64,000 bases of DNA from Pseudomonadota bacterium (GCA_039800105.1 JBDLRI010000025.1:2902-66901), one strand, 5' to 3'. Shown: positions 1,211 through 60,017, counted from the first letter of the stretch. Program-made: numbers and translations. Notes: generated by a model not told the origin, from the letters alone.

Positions 1211-2277
1211 CCGCCGCACTGGCACTGTGGTTCCTCGCCTGCGCGGGGTCTGCGGGGCCTGCTTCCGGGGCGGAGGGGGTCCCCCCCTCCGCAACGCCTC
1301 CCCCCGCGCCGGGGAAGCCGCCGACGGTGACGATGCAGGCCGACCTGCACCTGGACACCCCGACCCAGCTGCATCGTCGCAACGTCGGCCTCGACGCGAC
1401 GGGCCTGGAGGCCGGCCTCGCGCAGCTGCGGGCCGGCGGCACCAACCTCGCCGTCATGGCGCTCTGGCCCCCGCGGAGGACGGACGGGGAGGCCCATGTC
1501 GACGCGCTCCTCACGCGCATGGAGGCCGAGGACGCGCGCCTGGACGACGTCGTGCTCGTGCGTTCCCCCGACGAGGCGCGGTCCGCCGCCGCAGCCGGCC
1601 GCGTCGGCATCGTGTACGCGCTCGAGGGCACGCACGGCATCGACCGGAGCGGCATCCCCGGGCTGGAGAGGCTGCATGCGCGCGGGTTGGCGCTGCTCGG
1701 CCTGACCTGGACCTTCGACACACGCTTCGCCGGGTCGTCGGGCGGGAAGGGCACCGGCCTCACCGCCGACGGCCGCGCGCTGGTGGACGCGGCCAACCGG
1801 TTGGGCGTGCTCCTCGACGTGAGTCACGCCTCGCGCGCCACCACCCTCGAGGTGTGCGCGCGCTCCCGCGCGCCGGTGGTCGCCTCGCACTCCGACGCCC
1901 ATGTCCTCACGGCGCACCCCCGCAACCTCGAGGACGACGAGATCCGCGCCATCGCCGCCACCGGCGGGGTGATCGGCCTGAACCTCCATCGCCCGTTCCT
2001 CGGCGGGACCGGCGACCTCGCACGGGCCGCGGAACACGCCACGCACCTCAAGCGCGTCGGTGGCGCCGGCGTGGTCGCGCTCGGAACCGATTTCGACGGG
2101 CTCATCGTGCCGCCGCGTGACCTCCCGGACTCCGGCGGCATCGCCGCGCTGTGGCCGTTGCTCACGGCGCGCGGCTGGTCCGCCGCCGAAATCGAAGGGG
2201 TGCGCGGCGCGAACTTCCTCCGTGCATGGCAGGCCGCGCTGGCGACCGCCGGCACCCGCGCGTCCGGCACCCCGTAG
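1207..2277 (+). CDS. Membrane dipeptidase (peptidase M19 family)
   Basis: Distal part of ORF 19..2277. M19 pattern: DLHLDTP, ALEGTHGI, LGLTWTFDTRF, LLDVSHAS, VVASHSDA, VIGLNLH, ALGTDFDG. GTG 1207 overlaps the aspS stop (GTGA) and gives a hydrophobic N-terminus (ALALWFLAC). The alternative ATG 1333 would leave repeat copy 1265-1305 intergenic. Confidence 0.85.
   Translation: MTAALALWFLACAGSAGPASGAEGVPPSATPPPAPGKPPTVTMQADLHLDTPTQLHRRNVGLDATGLEAGLAQLRAGGTNLAVMALWPPRRTDGEAHVDALLTRMEAEDARLDDVVLVRSPDEARSAAAAGRVGIVYALEGTHGIDRSGIPGLERLHARGLALLGLTWTFDTRFAGSSGGKGTGLTADGRALVDAANRLGVLLDVSHASRATTLEVCARSRAPVVASHSDAHVLTAHPRNLEDDEIRAIAATGGVIGLNLHRPFLGGTGDLARAAEHATHLKRVGGAGVVALGTDFDGLIVPPRDLPDSGGIAALWPLLTARGWSAAEIEGVRGANFLRAWQAALATAGTRASGTP
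1265..1305 (-). repeat. GC-hairpin repeat copy (orientation B on the + strand)
   Basis: ccggggcggagggggtccccccctccgcaacgcctcccccc. Matches the family consensus. Lies after the aspS stop, in the 5' region of the dipeptidase ORF. Confidence 0.85.
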
Positions 2278-3682: not shown

Positions 3683-5472
3683 TTGGCGGCGCCGCCCTTG
3701 GCAGCCGCCTCCTGGGCGGCCTGGACCTCGGCGGCGTGCTTCTGCAGGGCATCCACGCGCACGATGCGGTCGCGGTCGGTGAACCACACCACGCCGCCGG
3801 CGACCGCCACGCGCGGATGCACGAGCTCGACCTCGCTGACCCGCAGCTTCCAGTCGACCTTGCCCGGCTTCTTGAAGCAATGGAGCCAGCCGCCGTCGGT
3901 GAGGACCCACATGCGGCCCTCCTCGTCGAAGGTGACGTCCGCGCTCTCGAAGCCCGCGCCCAGCACGTCGGTGCCGAACTCCACGCCGTACCGGAACCCG
4001 TCGGCGCTCCAGGTCAGCATCGCTTGGCCGTGGAACGTCCAGATGCGGCCATCCGGCGCGACGTCGAGCGCGCCCGGCGCGCCGTCGGCGAGCTTCCACG
4101 GCTCTCCGAGCCGCTCGCCCTGCATGTCGTAGCGGGCCGCCCGGCTGCCCAGCACGACAACCAGCTCCTTCTTCTTCGGCAGCCACGCCAGGTAGCCCTG
4201 TCCGCCCACGCCCGGCTCCGGCGAGTCGCCCACGTCCGCGGTCCACCCGCGCAGCAGCGCGCCGTCGGGGCCGAAGAGCTGCACGCGCCCGACCCCGTCG
4301 AGCACCGCGAAGGAATCGCCGTCCTTGGCGGGCATCAGCTCCACGTCGAGGACGTTCACGAAGCTGCCCGTCGCCTCCGCCCCGACCGAACCGGCGGCGT
4401 ACCAGGGCCGACGTCCGGCGAACCACGCCTCCGTGACGTCCCGCGGGCCGCCCCACTGCGCCTGTACCACGCCATCGTCGCCGAAGCGCTGCACCCGGTT
4501 GTTCGCCAGGTCGCCCACCCACACCCGTCCGGCGCGGTCCCGCTCGATGGCGAGCGGCTCACCGAAGCTCCGCAAGGCGCCGGGCTCCCAGCCGCTCTCG
4601 CCCCAGGGAAGCACGTTCTTGCGCCCGCCACCCTGGAGCTCCGCCCAGGCGTAGAAGTACTCCACGTCGCTCCAGGCCGCGGCCTGCTCGCGCCCGAGCG
4701 CGCGCAGCGCCGCCTGTTCCAGGCCGGGGATGCCGTTGGCGTCCTTGAGCTTGCGCAGGGCCTCGTGCGCCTTCGGGTCCGCCACGATGGCCGCCGCGCG
4801 GAAGCCTTCGGGCACCAGCCCCGCCACACGGCGACGGAGGTACGGCGCGCCCTCGCCCGCGGCGTCGACGAGGAACGCCAGGGACTTCGCGTCCTCCGGC
4901 TGCTTGGTGTGCGTGTCGAACGCCTTGATGACGTCCGCCTCGTGACGTGCCTGAAGCTGCTGCGCCTCGCGGGAGGACCGCCACGCGTCCAGACGGGCCA
5001 CGGACCGGGCACGCTCCCCCTCGTCGAAGTTGACGGCCACCTCGGAGAGATAGGTGTCCCCGTACACGCCGCCCTCGAAACTCTCGACCAGCTCGATGCG
5101 CACGGTGCGGCCGGTCACGCCGACGTCGAGGTCCGCGCGGCGCATCGTGTCCTGCAGCCGCACCGGCTCGCCCACCGGCTTGCCGTCGACGAGGATCCGC
5201 ACCGTCTTCGGCCGCCCGTACTCGCGGAACGAGCGCGCGCCGTCCTTGAGGTTCCCCGGCCAGAGGCTCAGCGTCGTGATCGTCGTGGGGGAAGCAAGGT
5301 CGAACTCCCACCAGGCCCCGTCCCCCGTGCCGGGGGCGCCTTCCGCCCAGCCGGTGGACAGCAACCCGTCGAGGGCCAGCTCGGCGCCGTGGCGGCCGGC
5401 CTCGTCGGTGGCGACCGAGGACGCCGCGGATCGCGCGAACGCGAGGGTGGAGAGGACGATCAGGCCGAGCAT
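3679..5472 (-). CDS. Secreted protein with a discoidin/NADase-type glycan-binding-like domain and an NHL-repeat beta-propeller
   Basis: ORF 3679..5517. ATG 5472 is preceded by GGAGG and gives the signal peptide MLGLIVLSTLAFA. The N-terminal segment LDGLLSTGWAEG...WWEFDL...REYGRPKTVRILVDG...YLSEVAV resembles discoidin/NADase-type glycan-binding domains. An NHL-like repeat is present (VWVGDLANNRVQRFGDDG). Confidence 0.75.
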   Translation of the reverse strand: MLGLIVLSTLAFARSAASSVATDEAGRHGAELALDGLLSTGWAEGAPGTGDGAWWEFDLASPTTITTLSLWPGNLKDGARSFREYGRPKTVRILVDGKPVGEPVRLQDTMRRADLDVGVTGRTVRIELVESFEGGVYGDTYLSEVAVNFDEGERARSVARLDAWRSSREAQQLQARHEADVIKAFDTHTKQPEDAKSLAFLVDAAGEGAPYLRRRVAGLVPEGFRAAAIVADPKAHEALRKLKDANGIPGLEQAALRALGREQAAAWSDVEYFYAWAELQGGGRKNVLPWGESGWEPGALRSFGEPLAIERDRAGRVWVGDLANNRVQRFGDDGVVQAQWGGPRDVTEAWFAGRRPWYAAGSVGAEATGSFVNVLDVELMPAKDGDSFAVLDGVGRVQLFGPDGALLRGWTADVGDSPEPGVGGQGYLAWLPKKKELVVVLGSRAARYDMQGERLGEPWKLADGAPGALDVAPDGRIWTFHGQAMLTWSADGFRYGVEFGTDVLGAGFESADVTFDEEGRMWVLTDGGWLHCFKKPGKVDWKLRVSEVELVHPRVAVAGGVVWFTDRDRIVRVDALQKHAAEVQAAQEAAAKGGAAK

Positions 5473-5527
5473 GGCACCTCCGCGCCGGCGACCTATGCCA
5501 CCCTGCGCCGTCTGCAACCATCCAGCT

Positions 5528-5562
5528 CCTGGGGCGGGGGCTGCCGCCCCCGCAACGCCCCC
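5528..5562 (-). repeat. GC-hairpin repeat copy
   Basis: cctggggcgggggctgccgcccccgcaacgccccc. Intergenic between the AAA/TPR gene and the discoidin/NHL gene. Confidence 0.85.
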
Positions 5563-5572
5563 GCCGGCGTGC

Positions 5573-8685: not shown

Positions 8686-9635
8686 GCCTCCCGGATGCTG
8701 GGGCGGAGGGGGTCGGCCACCCCCTCCGCAACGCCTCCCCCGCGGCGACGGTCGAGGCGCTGCGCGCGCGCATCGAGCGTGCCGTCGTCGGCAAGCGGCA
8801 GGTGGTCGATCTCGCCCTGACCTGCGTGCTCGCCGGCGGGCACCTGCTGCTCGAGGACGTGCCGGGCGTCGGGAAGACCACGCTCGCCGTGGCCCTCGCG
8901 CGCGCGACGGGCGGCAGCTTCCGGCGCGTCCAGTGCACGGCGGATCTACTGCCCTCCGACGTCACGGGGGGGCTGATCCTCGACGGCGCGGGCAGCCTGC
9001 GCTTCCGCCCGGGCCCCCTCTTCGCGAACGTCGTCCTCGCCGACGAGATCAACCGCGCCACGCCCCGCACGCAGTCCGCGCTCCTGGAGGCCATGAACGA
9101 GGCGCAGGTCAGCGTCGACGGCGAGAGCCACCCGCTGCCCTCCCCCTTCCTCGTCGTCGCGACCCAGAACCCGCTCGACGTGCACGGCACCTTCCCGCTG
9201 CCGGACGCGCAGCTGGACCGGTTCCTCGTGCGCACGTCGGTGGGGTATCCGCCCCGCGACGCCGAGCGCGCCATCCTGCGCGGCACCGCGGACGGCAGCA
9301 CCATCGAGCCGGTGGTGCCCGAGGCGCTCGCCGCGCTTCGGGCCGCCGTCCGCGCCGTCACCGTGCACCCCGACCTGGAGGACTGGGTCCTCGACCTGGT
9401 GGCGGCGTCGCGGAGCACGGGAGCGTTCGCGCGCGGTGTCAGCCCCCGCGGCGCGCAGGCGCTGGTGGCCGCGGCGCGCGCCCACGCGGTGCTGCACGGG
9501 CGCGCGTGGGTCAGCCCCGAGGATCTCCGCGCCCTCGCCGTGCCGGTTCTCGCGCACCGCGTGCTCGTACGGGACGACTCCGACCCCGCCGCAGCGGTGC
9601 GGGCGCTCGCGGACTCGCTGCCCCCCGCCGCATGA
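8682..9635 (+). CDS. MoxR-family AAA+ ATPase
   Basis: Distal part of ORF 8253..9635. Walker A LLEDVPGVGKTTLA, Walker B VVLADEINRA, ATQNPLDVHGTFPLPDAQLDRF. GTG 8682 overlaps the upstream stop. Repeat copy 8698-8741 lies in the first 20 codons, so the true start may be further downstream. Confidence 0.9.
   Translation: MSLPDAGAEGVGHPLRNASPAATVEALRARIERAVVGKRQVVDLALTCVLAGGHLLLEDVPGVGKTTLAVALARATGGSFRRVQCTADLLPSDVTGGLILDGAGSLRFRPGPLFANVVLADEINRATPRTQSALLEAMNEAQVSVDGESHPLPSPFLVVATQNPLDVHGTFPLPDAQLDRFLVRTSVGYPPRDAERAILRGTADGSTIEPVVPEALAALRAAVRAVTVHPDLEDWVLDLVAASRSTGAFARGVSPRGAQALVAAARAHAVLHGRAWVSPEDLRALAVPVLAHRVLVRDDSDPAAAVRALADSLPPAA
8698..8741 (-). repeat. GC-hairpin repeat copy
   Basis: ctggggcggagggggtcggccaccccctccgcaacgcctccccc. 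Lies at the lipoprotein/moxR junction. Confidence 0.85.
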
Positions 9636-10552: not shown

Positions 10553-12531
10553 CCCCCGCGGGGGAGGCGTTGCGGTGGGGGCAGCCGCCCCCTCCGCCCC
10601 AGCATCGACGCGGGTTCGATCCGCTGGCCGTCGTGATGCTCGCAGCCCTCGGAACCCTGTCGCTCGGCGGCGGCGTGTTCACCGTCGTGGCCGGCCTGGC
10701 CACGCTCGGATGCCTGTGGCCGCGGGTCGCTCCGGTCCCCCGACGGGAGGACTGGAACCCGGTCCACGCGGGGGTGCTCGTGCTCGCGATCGGGGTGGCG
10801 TTCGCCACGGAGGTCGTCGCGGGGCTCGCCGCCCTCGCCGCGTGGCTCCTCGTGCAGCAGCGATGGGCGCGGGGCCCCGACGCGGGCCGCAACGTGCTTC
10901 TGCTCGCCACGCTCGTGCTGCTCGTCGGCTCGCTGCGGGCGGACCACCCGGTCCTGGGCGTGTTGTTCCTGTCCTTCGCGGGGGCGCTCCCCCTGGCGCT
11001 GCTGGCGCTGTTGCCGTGGGGCCCCGATCCCGGACCCGGTCGCCCGGCGCGCGCCGCCCTCGCCGGCGGCACGATGCTCGCCACGGCGGTCCTGTTCGCG
11101 ACCATGCCGCGCCTGGAGGGCGGCCTCTTCGGCACGGAACCGGTGACGCAGGGGCGTTTCCCGACCGACATGGAGCCCGGCTCCGGCGCACTCACCAGCG
11201 ATGACCTCGCGCAGGTCATGCGGGTCCGCGTCACGACACCGGACGGCGTCCCGATCCCCGGCCCGGTGTACGTGCGCGCCCGCGTGCTGGAGCAGTTCGA
11301 CGGCAGGCGATGGACCGCCGGGACCCCGCCGGAGCCGATCCCGCCGCTTCGGCCGAACGTGCGCGCCGAGGTGGAGCTCGACGCCGAGCCGGGCATGCAG
11401 CTCTACGGCGTCGGGGAGATCCTGCGGATCGACGGGGCCCCCGGCGTGCACCGCGTCGCGGAGGGGGTGTTCCAGCACCGCGCTCCCGGGCAGCCCCTCG
11501 CGTACGTTGCCTGGGGACACCGCGCCGAGGACGGGACGCCGCTCTCCACGCCGGAGGAGCGCTGGGTGGCGCTGCCGCGCGACCTGGACCCTCGCATCGG
11601 CGCGCTGGCCTGGTCGGTGGCCCGCGACGCCGCACCGGCGTCGGTCGTCGAGGCGCTGCACGCGCTGCTGATGCGGGACTACCGCTATGGCCGGGAGCCC
11701 GAACCGAGCACGCCCGACCCGAGCGCGGCGTTCCTGTTCGCCCGAAGGACCGGCAACTGCGAGCACTTCGCGAGCGCCCTCGCCCTCCTGCTGCGGGCCC
11801 GGGGCATCCCCGCACGCGTGGCGACGGGCTTCTACTCGGAGGAGACCGACGCGGAGGGCCGCGCCGTCATCCGGAGGGGACACGCGCACGCCTGGACCGA
11901 GGTACGAACGCTGGACGGGTGGCGCACGCTGGACGCGACCCCGCCGGGCGGTCTGCCGACCCCCGAGAGCGCCGGCCTCCGCGCGCGCGTCGCCACGCTC
12001 GTCGGCGCGTGGTACCGCGTGATCGTCGGGTACGACATGGAGGCCCAGTTCGCCGCGTACGGCCTGCTCGGGCGCCCGCTCGTCGGGGCCGGCGCGGGCG
12101 GTGCCGCCCCCTTCCGCGCCGGCATCGTCGGCATGCTCGCGACGATCGCGGCCCTGACGGTGGGACTGGGCGCCCTGCGGCTGGGCGTGGCGGCATGGTC
12201 CGGCGCCGGGCGCGTTCCCGACGATCCGATGCGGGCGGCCGCGCGCACGGCCCGGGAGGTGGTGGCGCGGGCGGGCCACCCGCTCCCGGAGCACCTCCCG
12301 CTGCGCGAGGCCGCGGCGTGGCTGGCGGCACGGGCGGGCACCCCGGCCGGCGCCGCCTTCGCCGCGTTTGCCGATGCCTGGTACGCCGCACGGTACGGCG
12401 GAGACACGGCCGCCGCCGCCGGGCTCGCAGACCGGCTCGACGCGCTGCGCCGCACGATGCGCGCAAGAACGAAGACGCCGACCCGGCAGGGTCGGCGCAG
12501 GTGGTGGGCGATACTGGATTTGAACCAGTGA
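10549..12531 (+). CDS. Transglutaminase-like membrane protein (TgpA-like)
   Basis: Distal part of ORF 9436..12531. GTG 10549 overlaps the DUF58 stop (GTGA). Multi-TM N-terminal region and a transglutaminase core RTGNCEHFASALALLLRARGIPARVATGF...HAWTEV...DATP. Repeat copy 10560-10602 follows the candidate start. The 3' end overlaps tRNA-Val in antisense. Confidence 0.85.
   Translation: MTPAGEALRWGQPPPPPQHRRGFDPLAVVMLAALGTLSLGGGVFTVVAGLATLGCLWPRVAPVPRREDWNPVHAGVLVLAIGVAFATEVVAGLAALAAWLLVQQRWARGPDAGRNVLLLATLVLLVGSLRADHPVLGVLFLSFAGALPLALLALLPWGPDPGPGRPARAALAGGTMLATAVLFATMPRLEGGLFGTEPVTQGRFPTDMEPGSGALTSDDLAQVMRVRVTTPDGVPIPGPVYVRARVLEQFDGRRWTAGTPPEPIPPLRPNVRAEVELDAEPGMQLYGVGEILRIDGAPGVHRVAEGVFQHRAPGQPLAYVAWGHRAEDGTPLSTPEERWVALPRDLDPRIGALAWSVARDAAPASVVEALHALLMRDYRYGREPEPSTPDPSAAFLFARRTGNCEHFASALALLLRARGIPARVATGFYSEETDAEGRAVIRRGHAHAWTEVRTLDGWRTLDATPPGGLPTPESAGLRARVATLVGAWYRVIVGYDMEAQFAAYGLLGRPLVGAGAGGAAPFRAGIVGMLATIAALTVGLGALRLGVAAWSGAGRVPDDPMRAAARTAREVVARAGHPLPEHLPLREAAAWLAARAGTPAGAAFAAFADAWYAARYGGDTAAAAGLADRLDALRRTMRARTKTPTRQGRRRWWAILDLNQ
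10560..10602 (+). repeat. GC-hairpin repeat copy (orientation A)
   Basis: gggggaggcgttgcggtgggggcagccgccccctccgccccag. Lies at the DUF58/transglutaminase junction. Confidence 0.85.
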
Positions 12532-12576
12532 CTCCTACCGTGTGAAGGTAGTACTCTTCCGCTGAGTTAATCGCCC
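12502..12576 (-). tRNA. tRNA-Val (anticodon CAC)
   Basis: Minus-strand 75-nt cloverleaf folded by hand: acceptor GGGCGAT/ATCGCCC, D stem ACTC/GAGT, anticodon stem CTACC/GGTAG with loop TTCACAC, T stem ACTGG/CCAGT with loop TTCAAAT, and an encoded CCA. Confidence 0.9.
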
Positions 12577-17641: not shown

Positions 17642-19018
17642 TCAGCGCGCGGGTCGGCGACGGCGACGCAGGGACGCCATCCCCGCGAGGAAGAAGATCC
17701 CGGGCGCCCCGGCCACCGCGCAGCCGCCCGTCTTCGGCGATGCGGTCGCCGACGTGACGGGGTCCCCGGCACAGGCCTCCGCGAGCTCCGCGGGACCGAG
17801 GCAGGTCCGCACGCGGGTCGAGGCCTCCGCGCGCACGGGGTTCACGCCGACCAGCACGTAGCTGCCGGCCGCCAACTCCCCCAGCGCGCGCGGCGCTGCC
17901 GTTCCGGCGAAGGTGTCCAGCGGCGCCTGCAGTCGACCGGCCCCATCCAGCGGATGGAGCGAGAACACGAGGTCGGGCGCGTCCGTGCCGGTCGCGAACC
18001 ATGCGGCCCCGCCGGGATGTTCCAACCCGTAATAGGTGGCGGCGAGCGGGTAGTAGCGGTTCGTGTCGTCGATCGACGCGCCGCGGGCGGCCAGCGGCGG
18101 CGGGGTGAGCTGCGCCGCGAACGGGTATCCGGGCTCCGCGCCGGCGCGCAGGCCGGTGGCGGCGTTCCGGCGCGCGAAGTCCGCGAAGTCCGCATCCAGC
18201 GCGCCGCCCGCCTCCTCCACCCGCCGCCCCACGTCCCCGAGCGCGTCGCCGTCGGAGGAGGCGGAGTCCTCCAGGAGGTCGACGAGCACGTCCGTGCCGT
18301 ACCGATCGGCCAGGAACCACCACCAGAGGGCGGTGCCGTAGGCGAACGCCGGCACCGGTCCCGTCGGCGGGCGGTCCAGCGATCGGCCCGCGTCCTGCAG
18401 ATACGCGCCGCAGAAGCGCAGGAAGTCGCGGCTTCCGGGATCGTAGAGGTCCTCCGCCCACGTGGCGGTCCCCTCCGACACCCACAGCTCCTGATCGGCG
18501 TCGTAGGCGGCCTGCACGGCGTGGAACAGCTCGTGCGACACGAGCACCGTGACCGCGGTGTCGATGCTGGCGTAGCCGTACCCGACGAAGTCGTTCTCCA
18601 GGAGCACGTGGCCCGCGCACGCGCGCGGGGCCGCGTCACAGGCCTCGGCCACGTACATGCCGTCGGCGTCCCCGCCGAAATCGACCAGGTAGACGTCCAG
18701 GGCGTCCGAGCCTCCCGCGCCCGAATCCGGGAGCGGCGCGCGGAACCCGACGCCGGCGTAGACGTCGAGCACGTCCTCGGTGCGGGCGGCCACGGCCTCG
18801 ACGAAGTCGGGGATCCCGTCCTGATCCGCGTCGGCACGCAGGGTGGCGTTCGGGCCGGCCTCGCTGTACCACACGCGCGCCCGCCCCTCGGCGCCGTCGA
18901 AGGACACGACGCGGTCTTCCGCGGAGAAGGCCCGCAGCCCGGACCCGTCCGTGGGTCGCCCCCACGCCGCACCGAGGAGCAGCAGCGCGATCACGCGCGC
19001 CGCCGGCGCGCGCACCGC
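17642..19018 (-). CDS. Secreted HExxH metalloprotease with MYXO-CTERM tail
   Basis: Distal part of ORF 17642..19846. Zinc motif VLVSHELFHAVQ. C-terminal tail GGCAVAGAPGIFFLAGMASLRRRRRPAR. GTG 19018 gives the signal peptide MRAPAARVIALLLLGAAWG; the alternative GTG 18994 overlaps the upstream stop (GTGA). Confidence 0.75.
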   Translation of the reverse strand, partial: AVRAPAARVIALLLLGAAWGRPTDGSGLRAFSAEDRVVSFDGAEGRARVWYSEAGPNATLRADADQDGIPDFVEAVAARTEDVLDVYAGVGFRAPLPDSGAGGSDALDVYLVDFGGDADGMYVAEACDAAPRACAGHVLLENDFVGYGYASIDTAVTVLVSHELFHAVQAAYDADQELWVSEGTATWAEDLYDPGSRDFLRFCGAYLQDAGRSLDRPPTGPVPAFAYGTALWWWFLADRYGTDVLVDLLEDSASSDGDALGDVGRRVEEAGGALDADFADFARRNAATGLRAGAEPGYPFAAQLTPPPLAARGASIDDTNRYYPLAATYYGLEHPGGAAWFATGTDAPDLVFSLHPLDGAGRLQAPLDTFAGTAAPRALGELAAGSYVLVGVNPVRAEASTRVRTCLGPAELAEACAGDPVTSATASPKTGGCAVAGAPGIFFLAGMASLRRRRRPAR

Positions 19019-20439
19019 ACCGCGAGCAGCGCGACCACCGCGGGGGAGGCGTTGCGGAGGGGGTGTCCCCCTCCGCCCCAGTCGGCCGAGGTGGCGCAGG
19101 CGCACCCCGCGGCGGCCTCCGCATCGGGCGGGTACAGCGTCTCGAGGATGCCGACGGGGTCGATGACGCCCCACCCGTAGACGTCGTTGCGACCGTCGGC
19201 GTCGGGAGGCACGCTCGCCGACGGCGCGGCGGTGCCCTCGATCAGCGCGCGGAGGTCGGCGGCGGTCAGCGTCGGATCCTGCGCGAGCACCCACCCGGCC
19301 AGGCCGCTCACCACGGGAGCCGCGGCGCTGGTGCCGCCGAAGGTCGTGGTCACGCCGCCGCCCGGCACCACCGACACCGTGGCGCTCGGCGCCGCGACGT
19401 CCACCGCGGGGCCGGCGTTGGTGTAGTTCGTCGGGTAACCGTAGCTGTCGGTGGCGGACACGCACAGCACGTCCTCCAGCGCCGCCAGTTCGATGGGGCG
19501 GATGCGCCGATCGTCGTTGCCGGCCGCGAAGACCACGAGCGCGCCGAGGCCGCCGCGCCCCTCGATGCTGGCCCGCGCGATGACCTCGGCCAGCGGCTCC
19601 GGCACCGGGATGGATTCGGTGAACCCCCAGGAATTGTTGATGACGCCGGCGCCCGCGGCGATCGCGTGCTCGAAGGCCCGCACGTCGGCGGACAGCGGCG
19701 TGTCGCCGTCCTCGCCGAGCAGCCGGATCGGGACGAGCGTGCACGCCGGACACATGCCCACGATGCCCACCTCGTTGCCGCCGCGTGCCAGCGCAGCCCC
19801 GGACACCGCCGTGCCGTGGAGATCGCAGGCCAGCTCGGGGCCACACGGCGCGGCCGGCGAGGGATCCTCATCGTCGTCGATCGCGTCGTACGGCGCGGTG
19901 ACCGCGTCCGCGAGATCGGGGTGCCCGATGTCGATGGCGGAATCGATGACGGCCACGCGCACGTCGGGATCGCCCGGCGACACGGCCCACAGGCGATCCA
20001 TCGACAGGCGGTCCACCCACCACTGGCTTCCGCGCGAGGGGTCGTCGTACACCCCCTCGCCGCCGGCCGGCGCCTGCGGCAGCAGCACGTCCGGGAACAC
20101 CCCGTGGATCCCGGCGCGCGCGGCGAGCGCCTGTGCCGTGACGATGGGCGACGCGGACGGCAACCGCCACGAACGGCCCCCGAGAAAAACCGCGCCCGGG
20201 GGCGCCGGCATGCCGGGCGCGACGCGGAACACGACCCCGTCGGACACGGCGAGGTCCACGACACGGCCCTCGAGGTGGGCGAAGCGGTAGACCGGGCGTC
20301 CGGCCCGGACCCCGACGCGCTCCGGCGGCGATGCCGGGTCGAAGCGCAGGGGCGCGGCGTCCGCCGGGACCCACGCGAGGAGGGCGAGCATTGCGACGAC
20401 CATGGGCCGCAGGATATCGGCGCGCCGCGAGGTCCGCAT
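18991..20439 (-). CDS. Subtilisin-like serine protease (S8) with MYXO-CTERM tail
   Basis: Distal part of ORF 18991..20640. Catalytic triad contexts VAVIDSAID, DLHGTAVSG and GGTSAAAPVVSG. ATG 20439 gives the signal peptide MRTSRRADILRPMVVAMLALLAWVPADA; ATG 20403 is the alternative. The tail GCACATSADWGGGGHPLRNASPAVVALLAVRCARRRRA contains repeat copy 19042-19081. Confidence 0.85.
   Translation of the reverse strand: MRTSRRADILRPMVVAMLALLAWVPADAAPLRFDPASPPERVGVRAGRPVYRFAHLEGRVVDLAVSDGVVFRVAPGMPAPPGAVFLGGRSWRLPSASPIVTAQALAARAGIHGVFPDVLLPQAPAGGEGVYDDPSRGSQWWVDRLSMDRLWAVSPGDPDVRVAVIDSAIDIGHPDLADAVTAPYDAIDDDEDPSPAAPCGPELACDLHGTAVSGAALARGGNEVGIVGMCPACTLVPIRLLGEDGDTPLSADVRAFEHAIAAGAGVINNSWGFTESIPVPEPLAEVIARASIEGRGGLGALVVFAAGNDDRRIRPIELAALEDVLCVSATDSYGYPTNYTNAGPAVDVAAPSATVSVVPGGGVTTTFGGTSAAAPVVSGLAGWVLAQDPTLTAADLRALIEGTAAPSASVPPDADGRNDVYGWGVIDPVGILETLYPPDAEAAAGCACATSADWGGGGHPLRNASPAVVALLAVRCARRRRA
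19042..19081 (+). repeat. GC-hairpin repeat copy
   Basis: gggggaggcgttgcggagggggtgtccccctccgccccag. Identical to the copy at 45717. Lies inside the MYXO-CTERM tail of the S8 protease. Confidence 0.9.
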
Positions 20440-22779: not shown

Positions 22780-23387
22780 ACACCGACGGCTTCTTCGACC
22801 GGGACGCGCTGGAGGTCGCGCACGACCTCATCGGCTGCGTGCTCACCCGCCACGAAGGCCTTCGCGTGCGCATCACCGAGGCGGAGGCGTACCGCTTCCC
22901 CGGCGACAGCGCCAACCACGCGCGCATGGGACTCACCCCGCGCAACGCGCCGATGTGGGGTCCTTCCGGCCATCTCTACGTCTACCTCTGCTACGGCGTG
23001 CATCCCATGCTCAACCTCGTCACCGGGCCCGGGGGTCACGCCGCGGCCGTGCTCCTGCGCGGTGGCGAGCCGATGCAGGACACGATCATGGGGCGGGGGG
23101 GCGCGCCCCCCCGCAACGCCCCCCGCCTCGACGGGCCCGGAACGCTCGCGCAGGCGCTCGGCGTCACCACGGCCCACACGGGCCTGCGGCTCGACGCCGT
23201 CTTCGCGCTCGACGCCCCCGACCGCCCGGTGACGCGGCTCGCCGGACCGCGCGTGGGAATCGACTACGCGGCCCCGGAACACCGCGACGCCCCCTGGCGC
23301 GTGGCATGCGCGTCCAGCCTCCACGTCGGACACCGGCGCACGCTCGCGCCGATCCCGGCTACCAGCTCGGCGCCGGGTTCGCGCTGA
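22770..23387 (+). CDS. mpg: DNA-3-methyladenine glycosylase (Mpg/AAG family)
   Basis: ORF 22770..23387, GTG start. FFDRDALEVAHDLIGCVL, ITEAEAY, DSANHA, HLYVYLCYGVHPMLNLV, GPGTLAQALGV, GPRVGIDYA. Repeat copy 23088-23125 lies in frame between conserved blocks. Confidence 0.88.
   Translation: MDPHTDGFFDRDALEVAHDLIGCVLTRHEGLRVRITEAEAYRFPGDSANHARMGLTPRNAPMWGPSGHLYVYLCYGVHPMLNLVTGPGGHAAAVLLRGGEPMQDTIMGRGGAPPRNAPRLDGPGTLAQALGVTTAHTGLRLDAVFALDAPDRPVTRLAGPRVGIDYAAPEHRDAPWRVACASSLHVGHRRTLAPIPATSSAPGSR
23088..23125 (-). repeat. GC-hairpin repeat copy
   Basis: atggggcggggggggcgcgcccccccgcaacgcccccc, in frame inside mpg. Confidence 0.85.
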
Positions 23388-28367: not shown

Positions 28368-28409
28368 ATGGGGGCGGAGGGGGGCAGCCCCCTCCGCAAC
28401 GCCTCCCCC
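28368..28409 (-). repeat. GC-hairpin repeat copy between convergent genes
   Basis: atgggggcggaggggggcagccccctccgcaacgcctccccc. Fills the 54-nt gap between the OYE and hsp20 stops. Possible bidirectional terminator (inference only). Confidence 0.85.
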
Positions 28410-32793: not shown

Positions 32794-34293
32794 TCAGCCG
32801 CCCAGTCGCGCGCGCAAGGCGTGGGCGCCCGCGACCACCACGCGCTCGCCGTCGGAGACCCCGTCCAGCACGCGCACACGCGCCCCGTCCGAGGCCCCGA
32901 CGCGCACCTCGCGCAGCGCGAAGCCCTCGGGCCCGGTCTTCACCAGCACCGTGGGGACGCCGTGCCGGGGCACCACCGCGTCCACCGGGACCGCGAGGCC
33001 CTCGTCCGGCTCGCCCGACGCGATGGCGACCCGCGCGGCCGCGCCCGGCGGCAGGGGCGCGTCGCACGCCACGGTCACGGGGACGCGTCCGTTGGCGGGA
33101 TCGACCTCGTGGCCGGCGTCGAGCACCACGGCGGCGAGGACCGGCGCGTCCTCCCGCGCCACGCGGCGGACCTGCGCCGTCGCGCCGGCCCGGATCCCCG
33201 CCGCGTCACGCTCCGGAACGTGCACGCGCACCCAGCTCGCCGCCGTGCCCACGACGCGCGCGAGGGCGTCCCCGGCGCGGACGACCTCGCCGGGCTGCAC
33301 CAGCAAGGCCGCGAGCGTCCCGCCGAAGGGCACGCGCACCGGCACGCCCGAGGACGCGTCGCGCCATGCCCGCGCGGATGCGTCCGCCGTCTTCGCCGCG
33401 GCGTCGCGCCGCGCGCGCTCGCGTCCCGACACCACGCCCGTGGCACGCGCGGCACGCGCGGCGTCCTCCAGCGCCACCTCGCGCTCCACGGCGGCGCCGG
33501 TGCGCCGGGACGCCAGCTCCGCGCGCTCCAGCGGGCCGACCAGCTCGCGGACGCGGGCGAACACCTCCCCGGCACGAAGGCGCGTGCCGGGCTGGGGACG
33601 CCCACCGACCGGCTGGAACACGCCATCCGACGGCGCCCGCAGCGTCGCCGCGCCCCCCGGCGCCGGAACGACGTGCCCGACCCCCTCGAGGACCGGCGCG
33701 ACGCGCACGGCCTCCGCGCGCGCCGTGCGAAGTCCGACCAGCAGCTGGGTCTCGAGCGGCATCGCCAGCACGCCCTCCACCCGACGCGCGACCGCGGTCC
33801 GCGCCGCCCCGACCCTCACGCCGTCGACGCCGACCAGCCCCACGTGCTCCGCCTCGCGCACCGCCAGCGCCCCGGCCCAGATCCCGGCGGGCAGGGGCTC
33901 CGCGACACGCCAGGCACCGCCGGCCTCGGCCTGCAGCTCACCCTCCACCACGGAACCCTCCGCCGACCGCCACCAGGCACGTACGGTGCCCGTCTCCACG
34001 GGCGACGTCGTGTCCGCACGGACGATCCACAGGCGCGGGCGGCCCCCGTCGACACTGGCCAGGACGGCCTCGTAGCCACCCTGCGGCGCCGATTCGACGT
34101 TTGCCTGGGGCAGGGGGGGCTCCGCCCCCCCCGCAACGCCCCCCCCGTCGTGGTCCCCGTCGCCGTGGTCCTCGTCCGCGTGGTCATCCCCGCCGTGGTC
34201 ATCCCCGCCGTGGGCGAGGGCGCGCCCGACTCCCAGCACGAGCAGCAGCCCCAGCCCGGCCACGCGCATCCGACGCCCTGTTCCCATCGTCAT
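32794..34293 (-). CDS. RND efflux periplasmic adaptor (CusB/CzcB-like) with an N-terminal His/Asp-rich tract
   Basis: ORF 32794..34338. ATG 34293 overlaps the upstream stop (ATGA); ATG 34287 is the alternative. Signal/TM MRVAGLGLLLVLGVG, then HGGDDHGGDDHADEDHGDGDHD. MFP-type hairpin, lipoyl and beta-barrel regions (RAGEVFARV, PFGGTLAALLVQPGEVVRAGDALARV). Confidence 0.85.
   Translation of the reverse strand: MTMGTGRRMRVAGLGLLLVLGVGRALAHGGDDHGGDDHADEDHGDGDHDGGGVAGGAEPPLPQANVESAPQGGYEAVLASVDGGRPRLWIVRADTTSPVETGTVRAWWRSAEGSVVEGELQAEAGGAWRVAEPLPAGIWAGALAVREAEHVGLVGVDGVRVGAARTAVARRVEGVLAMPLETQLLVGLRTARAEAVRVAPVLEGVGHVVPAPGGAATLRAPSDGVFQPVGGRPQPGTRLRAGEVFARVRELVGPLERAELASRRTGAAVEREVALEDAARAARATGVVSGRERARRDAAAKTADASARAWRDASSGVPVRVPFGGTLAALLVQPGEVVRAGDALARVVGTAASWVRVHVPERDAAGIRAGATAQVRRVAREDAPVLAAVVLDAGHEVDPANGRVPVTVACDAPLPPGAAARVAIASGEPDEGLAVPVDAVVPRHGVPTVLVKTGPEGFALREVRVGASDGARVRVLDGVSDGERVVVAGAHALRARLGG
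34104..34146 (-). repeat. GC-hairpin repeat copy
   Basis: cctggggcagggggggctccgccccccccgcaacgcccccccc, in frame inside the RND adaptor just after the His/Asp tract. Confidence 0.85.
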
Positions 34294-40230: not shown

Positions 40231-40943
40231 GTGCCCCCCGACCCGAGCGACTGGCGCCTCAGGGGCGGCGCGAAGGCGAGCAGCACCGTGCTGACGTAGC
40301 TGCGCTCGGTGGTGCGGCTGCCGTCATCGGGGTCCGGCACGAGGAGCGTGAGCGTGACCCGCACGGCGCGCGGCAGCCGGTTCGGCGTGTCGGCGCCCGT
40401 GGTGTCCCATTCCTTCCTCCATTCCCCGTCCTGCTGCTCGAGGTACTGGAGATCGAAGGCGCGCACCCCGTAGGCCACGGGGGCGATGTTCCCGTCCTTC
40501 TCCGGCTCCTGATCGACGCGGGGCGCCTCGCGACGGAGGAGCACGAGCGCGTCCGAGCGCGTGGGGTCATCCTCCGTCCAGTACGTGATCTCCGTCTGAT
40601 CGCCCTCCCGGGCGCCGACGATGCGGCGCTGGTGCGAGAGGGACGCCAGCCAGAGCCGATCCGCGCCGCGCTCGTCCTGCCCGACGAAGATCGTGCGGTA
40701 GGTGTTCACGGCCGCGGTGTTGGGGGTGAGGTACGCGAGCTGCAGGTCCCGGCGGATGCGGCCCATCGCGATGCGGGCCGCCTGGTTCGCCGCGTCCTCC
40801 TCCTCCAGGAGATCGCGCGTGGTGAGGGCGTTCGACAGCGTGAGAAACGTCATCAGCCCGATCAGCGCGAGCACGCTGATCGCCACCACGACCTCCACCA
40901 GCGTGAAGCCGGGCCGCGCGCGGAGGGCGCCGCGCCGCGTCAT
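40227..40943 (-). CDS. gspJ: Type II secretion system minor pseudopilin J
   Basis: Distal 238 codons of ORF 40227..41417. ATG 40943 overlaps the gspI stop (ATGA). Prepilin leader RARPG-FTLVEVVVAISVLALIG. Confidence 0.85.
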   Translation of the reverse strand: MTRRGALRARPGFTLVEVVVAISVLALIGLMTFLTLSNALTTRDLLEEEDAANQAARIAMGRIRRDLQLAYLTPNTAAVNTYRTIFVGQDERGADRLWLASLSHQRRIVGAREGDQTEITYWTEDDPTRSDALVLLRREAPRVDQEPEKDGNIAPVAYGVRAFDLQYLEQQDGEWRKEWDTTGADTPNRLPRAVRVTLTLLVPDPDDGSRTTERSYVSTVLLAFAPPLRRQSLGSGGT

Positions 40944-42264: not shown

Positions 42265-42269
42265 GGACG

Positions 42270-42707: not shown

Positions 42708-42711
42708 CGGT

Positions 42712-43944: not shown

Positions 43945-43947
43945 GCG

Positions 43948-45666
<1,719 letters not shown>

Positions 45667-45667
45667 G

Positions 45668-48295
45668 TCAGGGCCCCGTGGCGGGTGCCGGCGCCGGCGA
45701 GTCGGACGGCACCGCCGGGGGAGGCGTTGCGGAGGGGGTGTCCCCCTCCGCCCCAGGCGTCACGGGAGGCGTGGAGGACGGCGCGGCCCCCTCGGCCCCG
45801 GGCAGCGTGTCGATCGCCTCCGGGGTCTGTTCGGCCGGCGAGAGCTTCGTGCGGTAGCGGCTCGGCTCGTCGGGGAAGTTCATGCTGTAGCCGAGCAGGT
45901 CCTGGAGGGCCTTCTCCTGCTGGGCGCGGCTCTTGCCGTAGAAGCGGCGCACGAACTCCTGGTGCTGGGCCCACTTGTTGCGGTAGACCTCCTCGAGATC
46001 CGCCGGCTCGTTGATGACGTGCGGCGTGAGGAAGATGAGCAGGTTCGTCTTGCGGTCCGTCTCGCGCTTGCCGCGGAAGAACATGCCGAGGAGCGGGATG
46101 TCTCCGAGCACCGGCACCTTCGTGCGCACCTTGGTGGCTGTGTTTCCGATGAGGCCGCCCATCACGACGGTCTGGTTGTCGCGCACGACCAGCACGTTCT
46201 CGGTCTGGCGCTTGCTGGTGATGAAGCCCGCGGTGGCCACGTCGAGCCCGGAGCTGTCCTCCTCGACCTCCGCGACCTCCAGGTTCATCTCCAGCGTGAC
46301 GTAGTTGCTCTCGTTGATCTGCGGGGTGACGCGGAGCGTGATGCCGACGTCCTCGCGCTGGTAGCTGATGATCGGGTTGTTGTTGTTGTCGCGGCCGGCG
46401 CTCACCGGGAACGGGACGTTGCGCCCGATGTTGATCGTCGCCTCCTCGTTGTCCACGACCATGAGCGACGGGTTCGAGAGGATGTTCACCGCGCTGTTGC
46501 TCTGCAGCGCGTTGAGCGCGATGCCGAAGGCGGGGACCGTGAGCGTGGAGGTGCCGCCGGAGCCATTCGCGACGCTCACGTCGATGCCCTCGCCGAAGAC
46601 GCCCATGGCGAGTCCGCTGAGCAGATCCGCCGGGTTGAGGCCGAAGCTGCTCGCGTTGAGCTGCATGCTGCCGTAGCCGGTCTGGAACGGCGACACGTCG
46701 TTGCTGCCCATGTGGGCGCCGATGCCGGCGTTGAACTCGTCCTCGCTGGCGACCTCGACGACCGTGGCCTCCACGAACACCTGGCGGCGCGGGATGTCGA
46801 GGCGATCGATCACGCGGCGGAGGATGCGGAAGTCCTCCGGCGCCGCGATGAGCACCAGCGAGTTGGTGTTCTCGTCCGCGGTGATACGCACGCCGCTGTC
46901 GAAGGCCGCGACGACGCCCGTGCCACCGTCCGGACCGGCCGCCCCGCCGGGCAGGCCGGGAGGCCCGCCCTTGTCGCCGCCGCCGAAGCCGCCGGCGCGG
47001 CGCGCCGTGTTTCCGCGGGAGGACTGGGCGCCGGCCTTCTTGCCGCCGGCCCGGTTGCCACCCCCGCCGCCGGTGCCGGTGCCCCCGGAGAGGCTCTGCA
47101 GCACGCCGGCCACGTCCTGGGCCTTGGCGTGCTCCAGGTAGATCACGTGGATCTGGCTGCGGCTGGCGGGATCGATGTCGACGTCGAGGGTCTTGATGAG
47201 CTCCTTGACCTTCGTCAGCGCCTCCTCGTTGGCCTGGAGGATGAGCGAGTTGGTGCGCTCGTCCGAGATGATCTTGGAGATGTAGGCGCCCTCGGAGCCG
47301 ACGTTGGTGCTCGTCGCGCCGGTGGGCGCGGGCGCCTCGTCCGCCTTCGCGCGGCGACGGGACGCGCGGTCTCCGCCCGCCCCGGTGCCCCCGGTCGACG
47401 CGGCCACGCCGTAGACCTCCTCCAGGACCTTCTCGATGTCGGCCGCCACGGCGTAGCGGATCGCGACGACCTCGAGCTTGGACTTGGGCGCCGCGACGTC
47501 GAGCTGCTTCACGATCCGGTACACGCGACGGATGTTGAAGGCCGCGTCCGTCACGATGAGCGTGTTCGTGGGCGCGTAGGTGATGACCTTGGCGTTGGGA
47601 CCGCTCAGCTCCTTCACGATGGTGCTGATCTCGTTCACCGCCACGTTGTCGAGCCCGATGATCTGCGTGACGAAGTTGTCGGTCGCCGGGATCTCGTCGC
47701 CGTCGTAGACCCGCAGCGGGGCGTTGGCGGCCTTGCCCGTCGCGACGATCTTCGTGTTCTTCCCGACGGTGACGGTCGTGAAGCCCGCCACCTCCAGCGC
47801 GCTCAGGAAGGCCTCGTAGGCCTCCGCGATCGTCACGGGCTGGTGGCTGATGATCGACATCGTGCCCTTCAGGTCGTCGGACAGGATGAAGTTCCGGCAG
47901 GTGATCTCCGCCATGTACTTGGCGACGTCCAGCAGCGGGGCGTCGGCGTAGTCCATCGTGACGCGCGTGGAGGCGTCGGCGCAGGGCAGCTTGCGGGCGT
48001 CGGGAGTCCCCGGCGCCTTCGGCGCCTCGGCGGCGGGCGCGGCCGGGGCCGCCGGCGCGGGGGCCTTGCCGGCCGGCGGTGCCCCGGGCAACACCGGAGG
48101 GGCACCGGGCAGCGGCTTCCCGCCGATGCCGGCGGGGAGGCCCGGACGGATGCGCTCCGGCGCCCCGGGCGCGGGAGGCGCCTTCGGGTCGTCGGCGTGC
48201 GCGGGGGCGACGCCCCCCACCGCGAGGGACAGCAGGACGGCGCAGGTGGCACGGACGGGGAGGAGAGTGTGCACGCGGGTTCCGGGGCGGGTCAT
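45668..48295 (-). CDS. gspD: Type II secretion system secretin D
   Basis: ORF 45668..48295. ATG overlaps the gspC stop (ATGA). Signal peptide, N0-N3-like repeats, secretin domain (VPVLGDIPLLGMFFRGKRETDRKTNLLIFLTPHVI). The Pro-rich C-terminal tail contains repeat copy 45717-45757. Confidence 0.93.
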   Translation of the reverse strand: MTRPGTRVHTLLPVRATCAVLLSLAVGGVAPAHADDPKAPPAPGAPERIRPGLPAGIGGKPLPGAPPVLPGAPPAGKAPAPAAPAAPAAEAPKAPGTPDARKLPCADASTRVTMDYADAPLLDVAKYMAEITCRNFILSDDLKGTMSIISHQPVTIAEAYEAFLSALEVAGFTTVTVGKNTKIVATGKAANAPLRVYDGDEIPATDNFVTQIIGLDNVAVNEISTIVKELSGPNAKVITYAPTNTLIVTDAAFNIRRVYRIVKQLDVAAPKSKLEVVAIRYAVAADIEKVLEEVYGVAASTGGTGAGGDRASRRRAKADEAPAPTGATSTNVGSEGAYISKIISDERTNSLILQANEEALTKVKELIKTLDVDIDPASRSQIHVIYLEHAKAQDVAGVLQSLSGGTGTGGGGGNRAGGKKAGAQSSRGNTARRAGGFGGGDKGGPPGLPGGAAGPDGGTGVVAAFDSGVRITADENTNSLVLIAAPEDFRILRRVIDRLDIPRRQVFVEATVVEVASEDEFNAGIGAHMGSNDVSPFQTGYGSMQLNASSFGLNPADLLSGLAMGVFGEGIDVSVANGSGGTSTLTVPAFGIALNALQSNSAVNILSNPSLMVVDNEEATINIGRNVPFPVSAGRDNNNNPIISYQREDVGITLRVTPQINESNYVTLEMNLEVAEVEEDSSGLDVATAGFITSKRQTENVLVVRDNQTVVMGGLIGNTATKVRTKVPVLGDIPLLGMFFRGKRETDRKTNLLIFLTPHVINEPADLEEVYRNKWAQHQEFVRRFYGKSRAQQEKALQDLLGYSMNFPDEPSRYRTKLSPAEQTPEAIDTLPGAEGAAPSSTPPVTPGAEGDTPSATPPPAVPSDSPAPAPATGP
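45717..45757 (+). repeat. GC-hairpin repeat copy
   Basis: gggggaggcgttgcggagggggtgtccccctccgccccagg, in frame in the gspD C-terminal tail. Confidence 0.9.
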
Positions 48296-56538: not shown

Positions 56539-56553
56539 CCCACCAAGACCGGC

Positions 56554-56591
56554 GGGGGGCGTTGCGGGGGGCAGCCAGCCCCCCGCCCCAG
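56554..56591 (+). repeat. GC-hairpin repeat copy
   Basis: ggggggcgttgcggggggcagccagccccccgccccag, intergenic between the two NAGPA-like paralogs. Confidence 0.85.
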
Positions 56592-59252: not shown

Positions 59253-59289
59253 CCTGGGGCGGGGCCTCGGGCCGGCCCCGCAACGCCCC
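59253..59289 (-). repeat. GC-hairpin repeat copy between convergent genes
   Basis: cctggggcggggcctcgggccggccccgcaacgcccc, between the PPIase stop and the methyltransferase stop. Confidence 0.8.
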
Positions 59290-59294
59290 GGCCC

Positions 59295-60017
59295 TCACGG
59301 GAACGGGGCGACCTCCGCGACGATGACCCAGTCCTCGCCCCACACCTGCGGCCCGATCTCCAGCGCACGGGCGCGGACGTCCTCGATGGAGGCCTCCATC
59401 GCCGCCGCCAGCGCCGGGTCTCGAAACCACTTCAACTTGGCCCGCGCCACGTCCAGCTGCCCGTTCACGAAGCGCGCGCCGATTCGGTTGGGGAACCGCG
59501 CGACGTCGCACACGCGGTACCCGGCCTGCGCAAGCCAGGTCTCGATCGTCGACGCCGGATACTCGCGGTACGTCCGGTGCCCGGCCAGGAGGATGCAGGC
59601 GTCCCGCATGCGGCAGACCTCGTCGAGCACGCTGCCGTCGCGCGGCTGCGGCTCCAGCCCCACGAGGTAGACCCGTCCGCCACAGTGCGGACGCAGCCGC
59701 CGGAGGAAGTCGTACTGGAAATACGGCGCGTGCCCGTCGATCGCCCCGATGACATAGTCCACCAGCACCTGGTCGAACACCTCGCCGTAGAGCAGCGCCG
59801 GGTCGGTCCATTGACCGATCACGAGCCGCGCATCCACACCGAGGGCGCGCAGACCCTCGATCCGCCACGTCTCCACCGTCACGGCCGTCCGGGACGCGGC
59901 CGGGAGCGTGCCCAGCCACGACAGGCTGTGGTCGCCGGTGCCGGCGTCCAGCACGCTGCCCCAGGCCGGGCCATTGGCGCGCTCGATGTACGTGAAGAGC
60001 GCGTCCTCGCGCCTCAA
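59295..60017 (-). CDS. Class I SAM-dependent methyltransferase
   Basis: Distal part of ORF 59295..60065. Motif I-like VLDAGTGDHS. Start uncertain: TTG 60017 overlaps the tyrS stop. Confidence 0.6.
   Translation of the reverse strand: MRREDALFTYIERANGPAWGSVLDAGTGDHSLSWLGTLPAASRTAVTVETWRIEGLRALGVDARLVIGQWTDPALLYGEVFDQVLVDYVIGAIDGHAPYFQYDFLRRLRPHCGGRVYLVGLEPQPRDGSVLDEVCRMRDACILLAGHRTYREYPASTIETWLAQAGYRVCDVARFPNRIGARFVNGQLDVARAKLKWFRDPALAAAMEASIEDVRARALEIGPQVWGEDWVIVAEVAPFP

Follow-up and report, generated by a model that had tools for sequence, protein, structure and literature searches.

A dispersed hairpin repeat inserted in frame in the MYXO-CTERM-type tail of an S8 serine protease, with probable retention of the sorting signal

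What becomes of a C-terminal sorting signal when a dispersed DNA repeat is inserted into it? This question is raised by the gene of an S8 serine protease on a 64,000-nucleotide stretch of DNA from a Pseudomonadota bacterium (GCA_039800105.1, JBDLRI010000025.1:2902-66901), which is called the window in the following and has a base composition of 74% G+C. The protease ends in a tail of the MYXO-CTERM type, and an earlier note on this DNA had proposed that a hairpin repeat of 40 bp is inserted in this tail, where it either tests the tolerance of the sorting machinery to spacer length or has disabled sorting. As laid out below, we consider it probable that a copy of the repeat was inserted in frame at the 3' end of the protease gene and landed in a spacer that is discarded upon processing, at a site that is permissive, so that the tag is likely functional.

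The protease (for coordinates of this and the other features see Table 1) also matches a mycosin-like S8 model in profile searches and starts with a sequence that resembles a signal peptide by inspection (MRTSRRADILRPMVVAMLALLAWVPADA). Its C-terminal 38 residues are GCACATSADWGGGGHPLRNASPAVVALLAVRCARRRRA, with the layout GCACATSAD-WGGGGHPLRNASP-AVVALLAV-RCARRRRA. As claimed before for the tail at 18991-19100, the 13 residues WGGGGHPLRNASP are encoded by a repeat copy that lies in frame inside the MYXO-CTERM-type spacer, and this insert parts the cysteine motif from the hydrophobic and arginine segments. The copy is present where it had been placed (19042-19081), except that the last base of that span is a flanking C. 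It extends the spacer to 18 residues, compared to about 7-11 in the five other tails of this type in the window, for which an earlier count of 3-9 was roughly right but slightly low. The protein is also encoded, identically or nearly so, in independent assemblies of the Joint Genome Institute (JGI) and NCBI (P0001 and P0243-245).

A search over 5.8 billion proteins yielded 298 homologues, and the tails of the best 120 of these were compared. In almost all, GCxC is joined by a short spacer to a run of 11-15 hydrophobic residues, after which RRR follows. Among the proteins compared, WGGGGHPLRNASP is restricted to P0001, P0243-245 and a single further protein, the 81%-identical orthologue P0002 from locus L001, in which it occupies the same codon. 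The other 107 tails that could be parsed are free of the insert and show a median distance of 23 residues between the first Cys and RRR (range 12-44), and in the protease this distance is 32 as is and 19 after subtraction of the insert. The length of the spacer is therefore less exceptional than had been claimed, as repeat-free homologues are found at distances of 32, 36 and 44 and as the spacer of TraA comprises 13 residues. Equally long spacers without the repeat, which the earlier note had named as evidence that would speak against it, thus exist in part, but the insertion itself stands.

The most informative comparison is that with L001 (NCBI GCA_013565555.1), which is collinear with the window across 4.6 kb at 80% nucleotide identity. 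The longest identical run in the alignment of 4640 columns is the element (46 nt), followed by a run of 32 nt. As the naive estimate for a run of this length is not compelling (~0.12, position-corrected), we rely on the four-fold degenerate sites, which are identical at 12/12 positions in the insert and at 163/271 (60%) in the whole gene (P = 0.002). The insertion hence is shared with the orthologue by ancestry, and the element is conserved at the nucleotide level to an extra degree. Downstream of the insert, many substitutions and a 6-nt in-frame indel are found, without any stop or frameshift, and a hydrophobic run with an Arg cluster is encoded in both loci (AVVALLAVRCARRRRA in the window, AVLGVLAALRARRRRVRA in L001). 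That this part of the tag is open and tag-like in both loci argues against a dead signal. That the Arg cluster might have arisen out of frame as a by-product of an upstream start of the next gene was considered as well and ruled out, because L001 has an ATGA overlap start and RRRR is kept. The 4-nt overlap between the protease stop and this start is conserved, with the sequence GTGA in the window compared to ATGA in L001, and it is also called in L010 and L012 (~62% identity). No copies of the element were found at the syntenic loci of these two relatives (21 kb each), which indicates that the repeat family is lineage-restricted.

CAP-domain (PF00188) proteins and DUF6055 proteins likewise have the element in their MYXO-CTERM spacers, where its sub-site and its frame are those seen in the protease. 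A repeat-encoded peptide, WGGGG(x1-2)PLRNASP, is shared by the S8, CAP and DUF6055 proteins among others, and other frames are used elsewhere. The CAP orthologues, which form a cluster at 90% identity, possess a perfect element with 3-nt loop indels between diverged flanks, and the hydrophobic run and basic cluster downstream of it are kept, with the exception of P0248. That cluster member carries the element and has the C-terminus ...VLVARTRCSLRHPRQGWLRRLLTR without an RRR cluster; it could be the product of a frameshift downstream of the insert and hence possibly have a disabled tag. In a DUF6055 orthologue the insert has decayed to WGGNGPTGPLTPVGGP, including a 6-nt in-frame indel, and the resulting 16-residue spacer is followed by an intact transmembrane segment and RRR.

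How these observations may be explained depends on the processing of such proteins. In the working model, the invariant Cys is lipidated and a myxosortase cleaves just distal of it, which releases the rest of the tag (PMC11980579). The tag of TraA, which is cleaved by MrtX as determined experimentally, has 13 polar residues between the Cys pair and the helix, and the reported export route of MYXO-CTERM proteins is the type II secretion system (PMC11980579). We propose that a dispersed, very G+C-rich repeat of ~40 nt, made up of a hairpin and a mirror tail, inserted in frame at the 3' end of the protease gene. Since the protease stop and the downstream start overlap and leave no intergenic space, a copy located where this cistron ends is forced into the coding sequence. 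It would have landed between the proposed lipidated Cys and the membrane helix and would there merely lengthen a flexible tether from ~5 to 18 residues. As everything past the Cys is discarded by the myxosortase in the working model, the 13 Gly/Pro-rich residues would be absent from the mature protease. The recurrence in unrelated MYXO-CTERM proteins would then point to a permissive site, as the tag most likely still works. From the sequences we infer that sorting and cleavage still occur, and that the recurrence stems from tolerance, or benefit, and not from site-specific targeting.

Several points weigh against this interpretation. With the cut-offs of 20 bits for TIGR03901 and 15.85 bits for TIGR03382, the native protease tail matches neither of the two nor any other NCBIfam sorting-signal model, and deletion of the insert in silico brings it from no match to 7.9 bits on TIGR03901, which is still below the cut-off. 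Most doubt arises from the hydrophobic run that follows the insert, which has 8-9 residues compared to 11-15 in the homologues, so that the insert may split the anchor; in addition, an Arg and a His from the insert adjoin the helix. Selection for translational coupling to the downstream gene, too, could be part of the reason why the frame is kept. Finally, the recurrence is supported by an enrichment of the element in MYXO-like tails (3/11 distinct tails compared to 20/461 other gene ends, Fisher p = 0.013), but this comparison comprises three events in loci selected for containing the element.

Some of these points are also the basis of the alternative that the insertion disabled sorting, in which case the protease would be released or held by an uncleaved tail and the tag would be a decaying relic. 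The failure of the family hidden Markov models (HMMs) to recognize the native tail and the short hydrophobic run fit this alternative, as does a Cys-to-RRR distance at about the 97th percentile of the homologues. We regard it as improbable nevertheless, because the RRRR cluster that is present in the protease tail and the hydrophobic run survive 20% nucleotide divergence and an indel in frame, and because a like arrangement is found with intact tails in two other protein families, where it outlasts the decay of the element that is kept as a spacer. Also, long spacers occur naturally, as exemplified by the 13 residues of TraA and by homologues with Cys-to-RRR distances of up to 44. Of the two outcomes that the earlier note had offered, tolerance is therefore favored and the disabled signal is not. 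Deletion of the insert in silico raises the scores of the related tails as well: the tail of the L001 orthologue goes from no match to 20.4 bits on TIGR03382 and from 7.3 to 15.7 bits on TIGR03901, and the CAP tail (L072) goes from 14.2 to 23.4 bits on TIGR03901. On the same model, the insert-free homologue P0008 reaches 27.6 bits, and the uninterrupted MYXO-CTERM tail of the metalloprotease encoded downstream of the S8 protease reaches 22.2 bits with the tail alone. As insert-bearing tails score under the curated HMM cut-offs, they will be overlooked as MYXO-CTERM substrates in annotation. Searches with the 41-residue protease tail gave zero candidates with a protein word index, and HMMER found two matches among 1.84 billion representatives, both of them unrelated repetitive proteins; searches of this kind are unsuited to surveying short peptides encoded by repeats.

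It may also be asked whether there was an insertion at all, since MYXO-CTERM spacers are often rich in Gly, Ala and Pro and the DNA has a high G+C content, so that a native Gly-rich spacer could resemble the repeat by chance or an artefact of assembly or of open reading frame (ORF) calling could be involved. This reading is effectively refuted: an exact match to the 23-nt hairpin core exists in another copy, where chance would give 0.00 such matches, the same tail is present in the independent JGI and NCBI assemblies, and the insert is absent from every homologue below 81% identity among those compared. With up to 3 mismatches, the hairpin core has 3 sites in the window compared to 0.00 expected, and a 22-nt core of the element has 12 sites within 5 mismatches. 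These counts establish the observation as real and not due to chance.

Together with a divergent copy at 59262-59300, the window thus contains at least 13 copies, roughly one per 5 kb. A scan of contigs with the 22-nt core found at least 8 loci, 6 of which are from one metagenome-assembled genome (MAG) among the matches listed, and a metagenome scan that left three covarying positions open added 120 further loci, mostly from assemblies with JACCD or JACCE accessions. The complete set (the window, L001-L003, L005-L006, L008-L009 and L014-L133) comprises 173 copies in ~880 kb. The exact 22-mers at L004 652-673 (Bryobacterales MAG) and L007 1152-1173 (Limnocylindrales MAG) come from unrelated phyla and were rejected as family members, because they lack the 5' hairpin arm; at L004, an alternative pairing of AACGCCTCC with GGAGGCGTT upstream of it is conceivable, and these two sites may represent chance or a related motif. 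Rfam has no family for the element at gathering thresholds, and a full-text literature search for repetitive extragenic palindromic (REP) elements in myxobacteria gave nothing relevant. The repeat family is previously undescribed, and its hosts are uncultured Myxococcota-like bacteria.

As a rule, the element resides at the 3' end of a cistron, and most copies start 7-60 nt behind the stop codon. For the 62 copies beside confident ORF ends, the ratio of sense to antisense orientation is 51:11 (binomial p = 3e-7), 39/51 sense copies start 7-114 nt past the stop codon, and 14/62 copies start within the last ~45 codons. This strong sense bias and the position behind the stop point to a role at the transcript level or coupled to transcription. 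It is therefore possible, although we would not put it ahead, that the element in the protease gene is kept for a function as nucleic acid and that the peptide is a by-product; the hairpin, with or without a triple helix, would then guard the mRNA from 3' exonucleases or set the ratio of the two proteases. Besides orientation and placement, this is supported by the 46-nt run and the invariant four-fold sites in the alignment with L001, by the CAP locus, where the element is likewise conserved while its flanks diverge, by the stability of the hairpin, and by a three-way covariation that implies selection on a folded structure. However, the structure is dispensable at L134, where the copy decayed and the protein tail was kept nonetheless, and the identity of copies could stem from recent spread or gene conversion. 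An intrinsic terminator of the classical kind was ruled out, as no U-tract follows the hairpin.

The structure of the element deserves a closer description in this respect. The insert is composed, in this order, of TGGG, GCGGAGGGGG, ACA, CCCCCTCCGC, AA and CGCCTCCCCC, and thus of a hairpin of 10 bp that is extended on its 3' side by 12 conserved nucleotides. The RNA hairpin with its flanks has -40.5 kcal/mol (z = -3.2), and ViennaRNA predicts the hairpin only. Read backwards, the 3' arm CCCCCTCCGC gives the 3' extension CGCCTCCCCC, which is thus a mirror image and not a reverse complement of that arm and forms the parallel complement of the purine arm. The blocks, joined by the 3-nt loop and AA, have the layout of an intramolecular triplex, purine-loop-pyrimidine-loop-pyrimidine (R-R-Y, with R for purine and Y for pyrimidine blocks, on the other strand), with 8 contiguous canonical triads (GGAGGGGG). 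Across the repeat family the loops measure 2-9 nt, slightly past the limit of 1-6 nt that is set for ITxF motifs, the blocks of which have at least 8 nt.

Variants of the element are altered in all three blocks jointly, as in GCGGGAGGGG/CCCCTCCCGC/CGCCCTCCCC and GCGGAAGGGG/CCCCTTCCGC/CGCCTTCCCC, in the G/C/C subfamily and in GGCC-topped stems with a mirrored GG; copies with such a covarying mirror tail are found, for example, at 19042-19076 and 59262-59300 in the window and at L059:89, L060:4295, L132:3176 and L099:4057. At positions 5-6, all 23 of 23 distinct variants with a changed stem, which are partly non-independent, show the mirrored change in the tail, and a change of the stem only occurs in 0. 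At least three kinds of change are represented (A/T/T to G/C/C, G/C/C to A/T/T, and a shifted A). The covariation is absent at position 1 and mixed at positions 8-10, close to the loop. Position 5 reads A/T/A in ten copies. A T.A-T triad is allowed in the antiparallel purine motif and not in the pyrimidine motif, and these ten copies would fit an antiparallel purine-motif triplex on the G-rich strand rather than a pyrimidine motif.

We know of no replication or recombination process that makes mirror repeats, and this pattern is therefore best explained by a three-stranded fold that is under selection. The 3' ends of the MALAT1 and PAN RNAs are protected by triple helices, and a hairpin with its 3' tail in the major groove would be a bacterial analogue. 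Taken further, the element could be a functional, transcription-oriented triple-helix module, or a purine-motif DNA triplex on the template strand, for which the cleaved spacer would be a selectively favored docking site in translationally coupled genes that lack intergenic space; we consider this rather doubtful as a whole. If it were true, evolution itself would have supplied, in the three-way covariation, natural evidence that bacteria form an intramolecular triplex, and the insertions would at the same time be natural experiments on the spacer tolerance of myxosortase substrates.

Returning to the probable insertion into a discarded spacer, its relevance is that nature appears to have varied the spacer length in three unrelated MYXO-CTERM substrates, which have 13-16 extra residues and are apparently under selection. 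Accordingly, the lipidation enzyme and the myxosortase are predicted to recognize their substrates irrespective of the distance between Cys and helix. The repeat family, which has repeatedly been absorbed into protein C-termini, also is a tractable system to ask if bacteria make use of intramolecular triplexes and in which way proteins become longer through selfish or structural repeats.

Further copies within coding sequences were observed. The DUF6055 metalloprotease at L075 has a second, antisense copy that is translated right after the signal peptide (4102-4136), and its orthologue P0252 keeps this copy in an altered form, TPGEALRTGGPPPPH. The copy in the tail of the secretin GspD (45717-45756) is identical to the protease insert and is shared by the 97% relative P0121; more distant GspD tails are unrelated low-complexity sequence. 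Several ORFs (L002 3128-3175, L126 and L127) run through an antisense copy and stop 1-3 nt past it, so that their last ~12 residues (GGGVAEG..PSAP or GEALRRG..) are wholly repeat-encoded. As to the surroundings, the window contains at least six MYXO-CTERM-type tails as well as an operon for type II secretion at a distance of 25 kb from the protease (39022-48295, minus strand), whose GspD and GspE were recognized from ORF translations and homologue annotations. Two adjacent genes with MYXO-CTERM tails share a direct repeat of 300 nt at 71% identity (55813-56112 and 57447-57746), which likely represents paralogous domains, and the second of them carries a tandem repeat of 27-30 nt with a GGC/ACC/AGC-rich unit (57986-58102). 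The sole Rfam match in the window is a tRNA gene (12505-12576, minus strand, 65.1 bits).

Table 1. Features of the protease locus and copies of the repeat element; positions refer to the window unless a locus is named.
Feature	Position	Strand	Basis or remark
S8 serine protease coding sequence, 482 aa + stop	18991..20439	-	ORF and translation, PF00082 match
Cys signature G-C-A-C of MYXO-CTERM-type tail	19096..19107	-	aligns with GCxC of >100 homologous tails
Native spacer ATSAD, upstream of insert	19081..19095	-	translation and homologue alignment
39-nt repeat copy, translated WGGGGHPLRNASP (13 codons)	19042..19080	-	ORF translation, repeat scans
Insert, 5' arm	19076-19067	-	
Insert, loop	19066-19064	-	
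Insert, 3' arm	19063-19054	-	
Insert, AA	19053-19052	-	
Insert, mirror tail	19051-19042	-	
Hydrophobic segment AVVALLAV, remaining membrane-anchor stretch	19018..19041	-	L001 orthologue: AVLGVLAAL
Basic cluster RCARRRRA	18994..19017	-	L001 orthologue: RARRRRVRA, 6-nt in-frame indel
GTGA overlap of protease stop TGA and GTG start of next gene	18991..18994	-	sequence
MXAN_6640-family HExxH metalloprotease, downstream gene	17642..18994	-	NF045524, 223.5 bits
CAP-domain (PF00188) protein	L072/L090		tail ...VGCASVPNS-WGGGGDPLRNASP-SGWMALIGMGAVLLERGRRRRTR
DUF6055/MXAN_6640-type metalloprotease with element in MYXO-CTERM tail	L075, gene 2636-4306	-	
Second in-ORF copy, disordered C-terminal tail of GspD secretin	45717..45756	-	different frame (PGAEGDTPSATPPP)
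Degenerate tandem copy directly upstream in GspD tail	45764..45803 (approximate)	-	31/40 identity, 0/2000 shuffles reach score
Intergenic copy	1266..1304	+	56 nt after stop codon
G/C/C-subfamily copy	5527..5565	+	8 nt beyond stop of 5573-8110 gene
Copy at gene boundary	8704..8741	+	coding frame switches there
Copy at gene boundary	10560..10600	-	
G/C/C-subfamily copy	23089..23126	+	intergenic
Copy between two convergent genes	28372..28409	+	8-10 nt from either stop
G/C/C-subfamily copy	34108..34146	+	coding context ambiguous
Copy after stop codon	35404..35442	-	53 nt after stop
Copy after stop codon	52467..52505	+	29 nt after stop
Copy between two MYXO-CTERM protein genes	56552..56590	-	
Divergent copy	59262..59300	+	arms GCGGGGCC and GGCCCCGC, mirror tail CGCCCCGGCC

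Palindromic repeats that are placed in frame in protein-coding genes were reportedly described as Rickettsia palindromic elements (RPEs) by Ogata et al. in 2000. Such in-frame repeats are known from Rickettsia (PMC10969869), and the element described here resembles them as a dispersed palindromic repeat that occurs in frame in unrelated genes, with a conserved peptide and at sites compatible with protein function, and whose old copies decay into ordinary coding sequence. It differs from the RPEs (~100-150 bp), which were compared by size only, in its length of 39-42 nt and in its extreme G+C content. In addition, it is mostly intergenic, with about one quarter of the copies beside confident ORF ends lying inside an ORF, and the insertions described here spare the mature fold and lie in what is proposed to be a cleaved propeptide.

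Intrastrand triplex motifs, on the other hand, are known as abundant bacterial repeats, namely PIT (Hoyne et al. 2000) and TM_ECO/ITxF (Holder et al. 2015, PMC4666352). The element shares with these the three consecutive G/C-rich blocks (R, Y and mirrored Y, with R-R-Y on the opposite strand), short loops, a high copy number, a mostly intergenic position and the presence of complementary triplex classes on the two strands. The element departs in sequence and in the order of its blocks from the TM_ECO consensus CCCTCNCCC-N3-6-GGGNGAGGG-N3-GGGNGAGGG (PMC4666352), and unlike TM_ECO/ITxF its blocks hold one G/C inversion. The string "Myxococc" has 0 occurrences in PMC4666352, so that no Myxococcota element is mentioned there. 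Beyond PIT and ITxF, the element shows a natural three-way covariation, an orientation bias and copies in frame in coding sequences.

A further likeness exists to the REP elements and bacterial interspersed mosaic elements (BIMEs) of enterobacteria and pseudomonads, which are short, abundant and GC-rich hairpins just past stops or between cistrons, and a role in stabilizing the upstream mRNA is plausible here as well. As a short, multi-copy extragenic palindrome (13 copies in 64 kb, 173 in ~880 kb) the element corresponds to what is called a REP, with the protease copy being intragenic. Unlike REP and BIME elements, it has a YTGGG 5' flank instead of a GTAG-type tetranucleotide and a conserved 12-nt 3' extension that mirrors a stem arm. 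Flanking direct repeats as in miniature inverted-repeat transposable elements were not evident by inspection of the three coding sites (GCCGAC|..|GCGGTG, AACTCT|..|TCGGGC and GCTTCT|..|GGCGTC).

With the MYXO-CTERM system (TIGR03901/TIGR03382; MrtX, PMC11980579), the protease has in common the C-terminal GCxC and the Arg cluster of a secreted protein, with a hydrophobic segment between them that has 8 residues compared to 11-15 in homologues. The family cut-off is exceeded by its homologues, and the window includes an operon for type II secretion. Its spacer departs from typical MYXO-CTERM tags by 13 additional, repeat-encoded residues, and its native tail stays under every family HMM threshold. 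As a kind of system, in-frame palindromic repeats and bacterial triplex repeats are both already known. What is new is the insertion site, which in three protein families lies in a sorting-signal spacer at the C-terminus that is proposed to be cleavable, and the element itself, a G/C triplex-style repeat of 39-42 nt in uncultured Myxococcota-like bacteria, of which the protease copy is conserved beyond coding needs.

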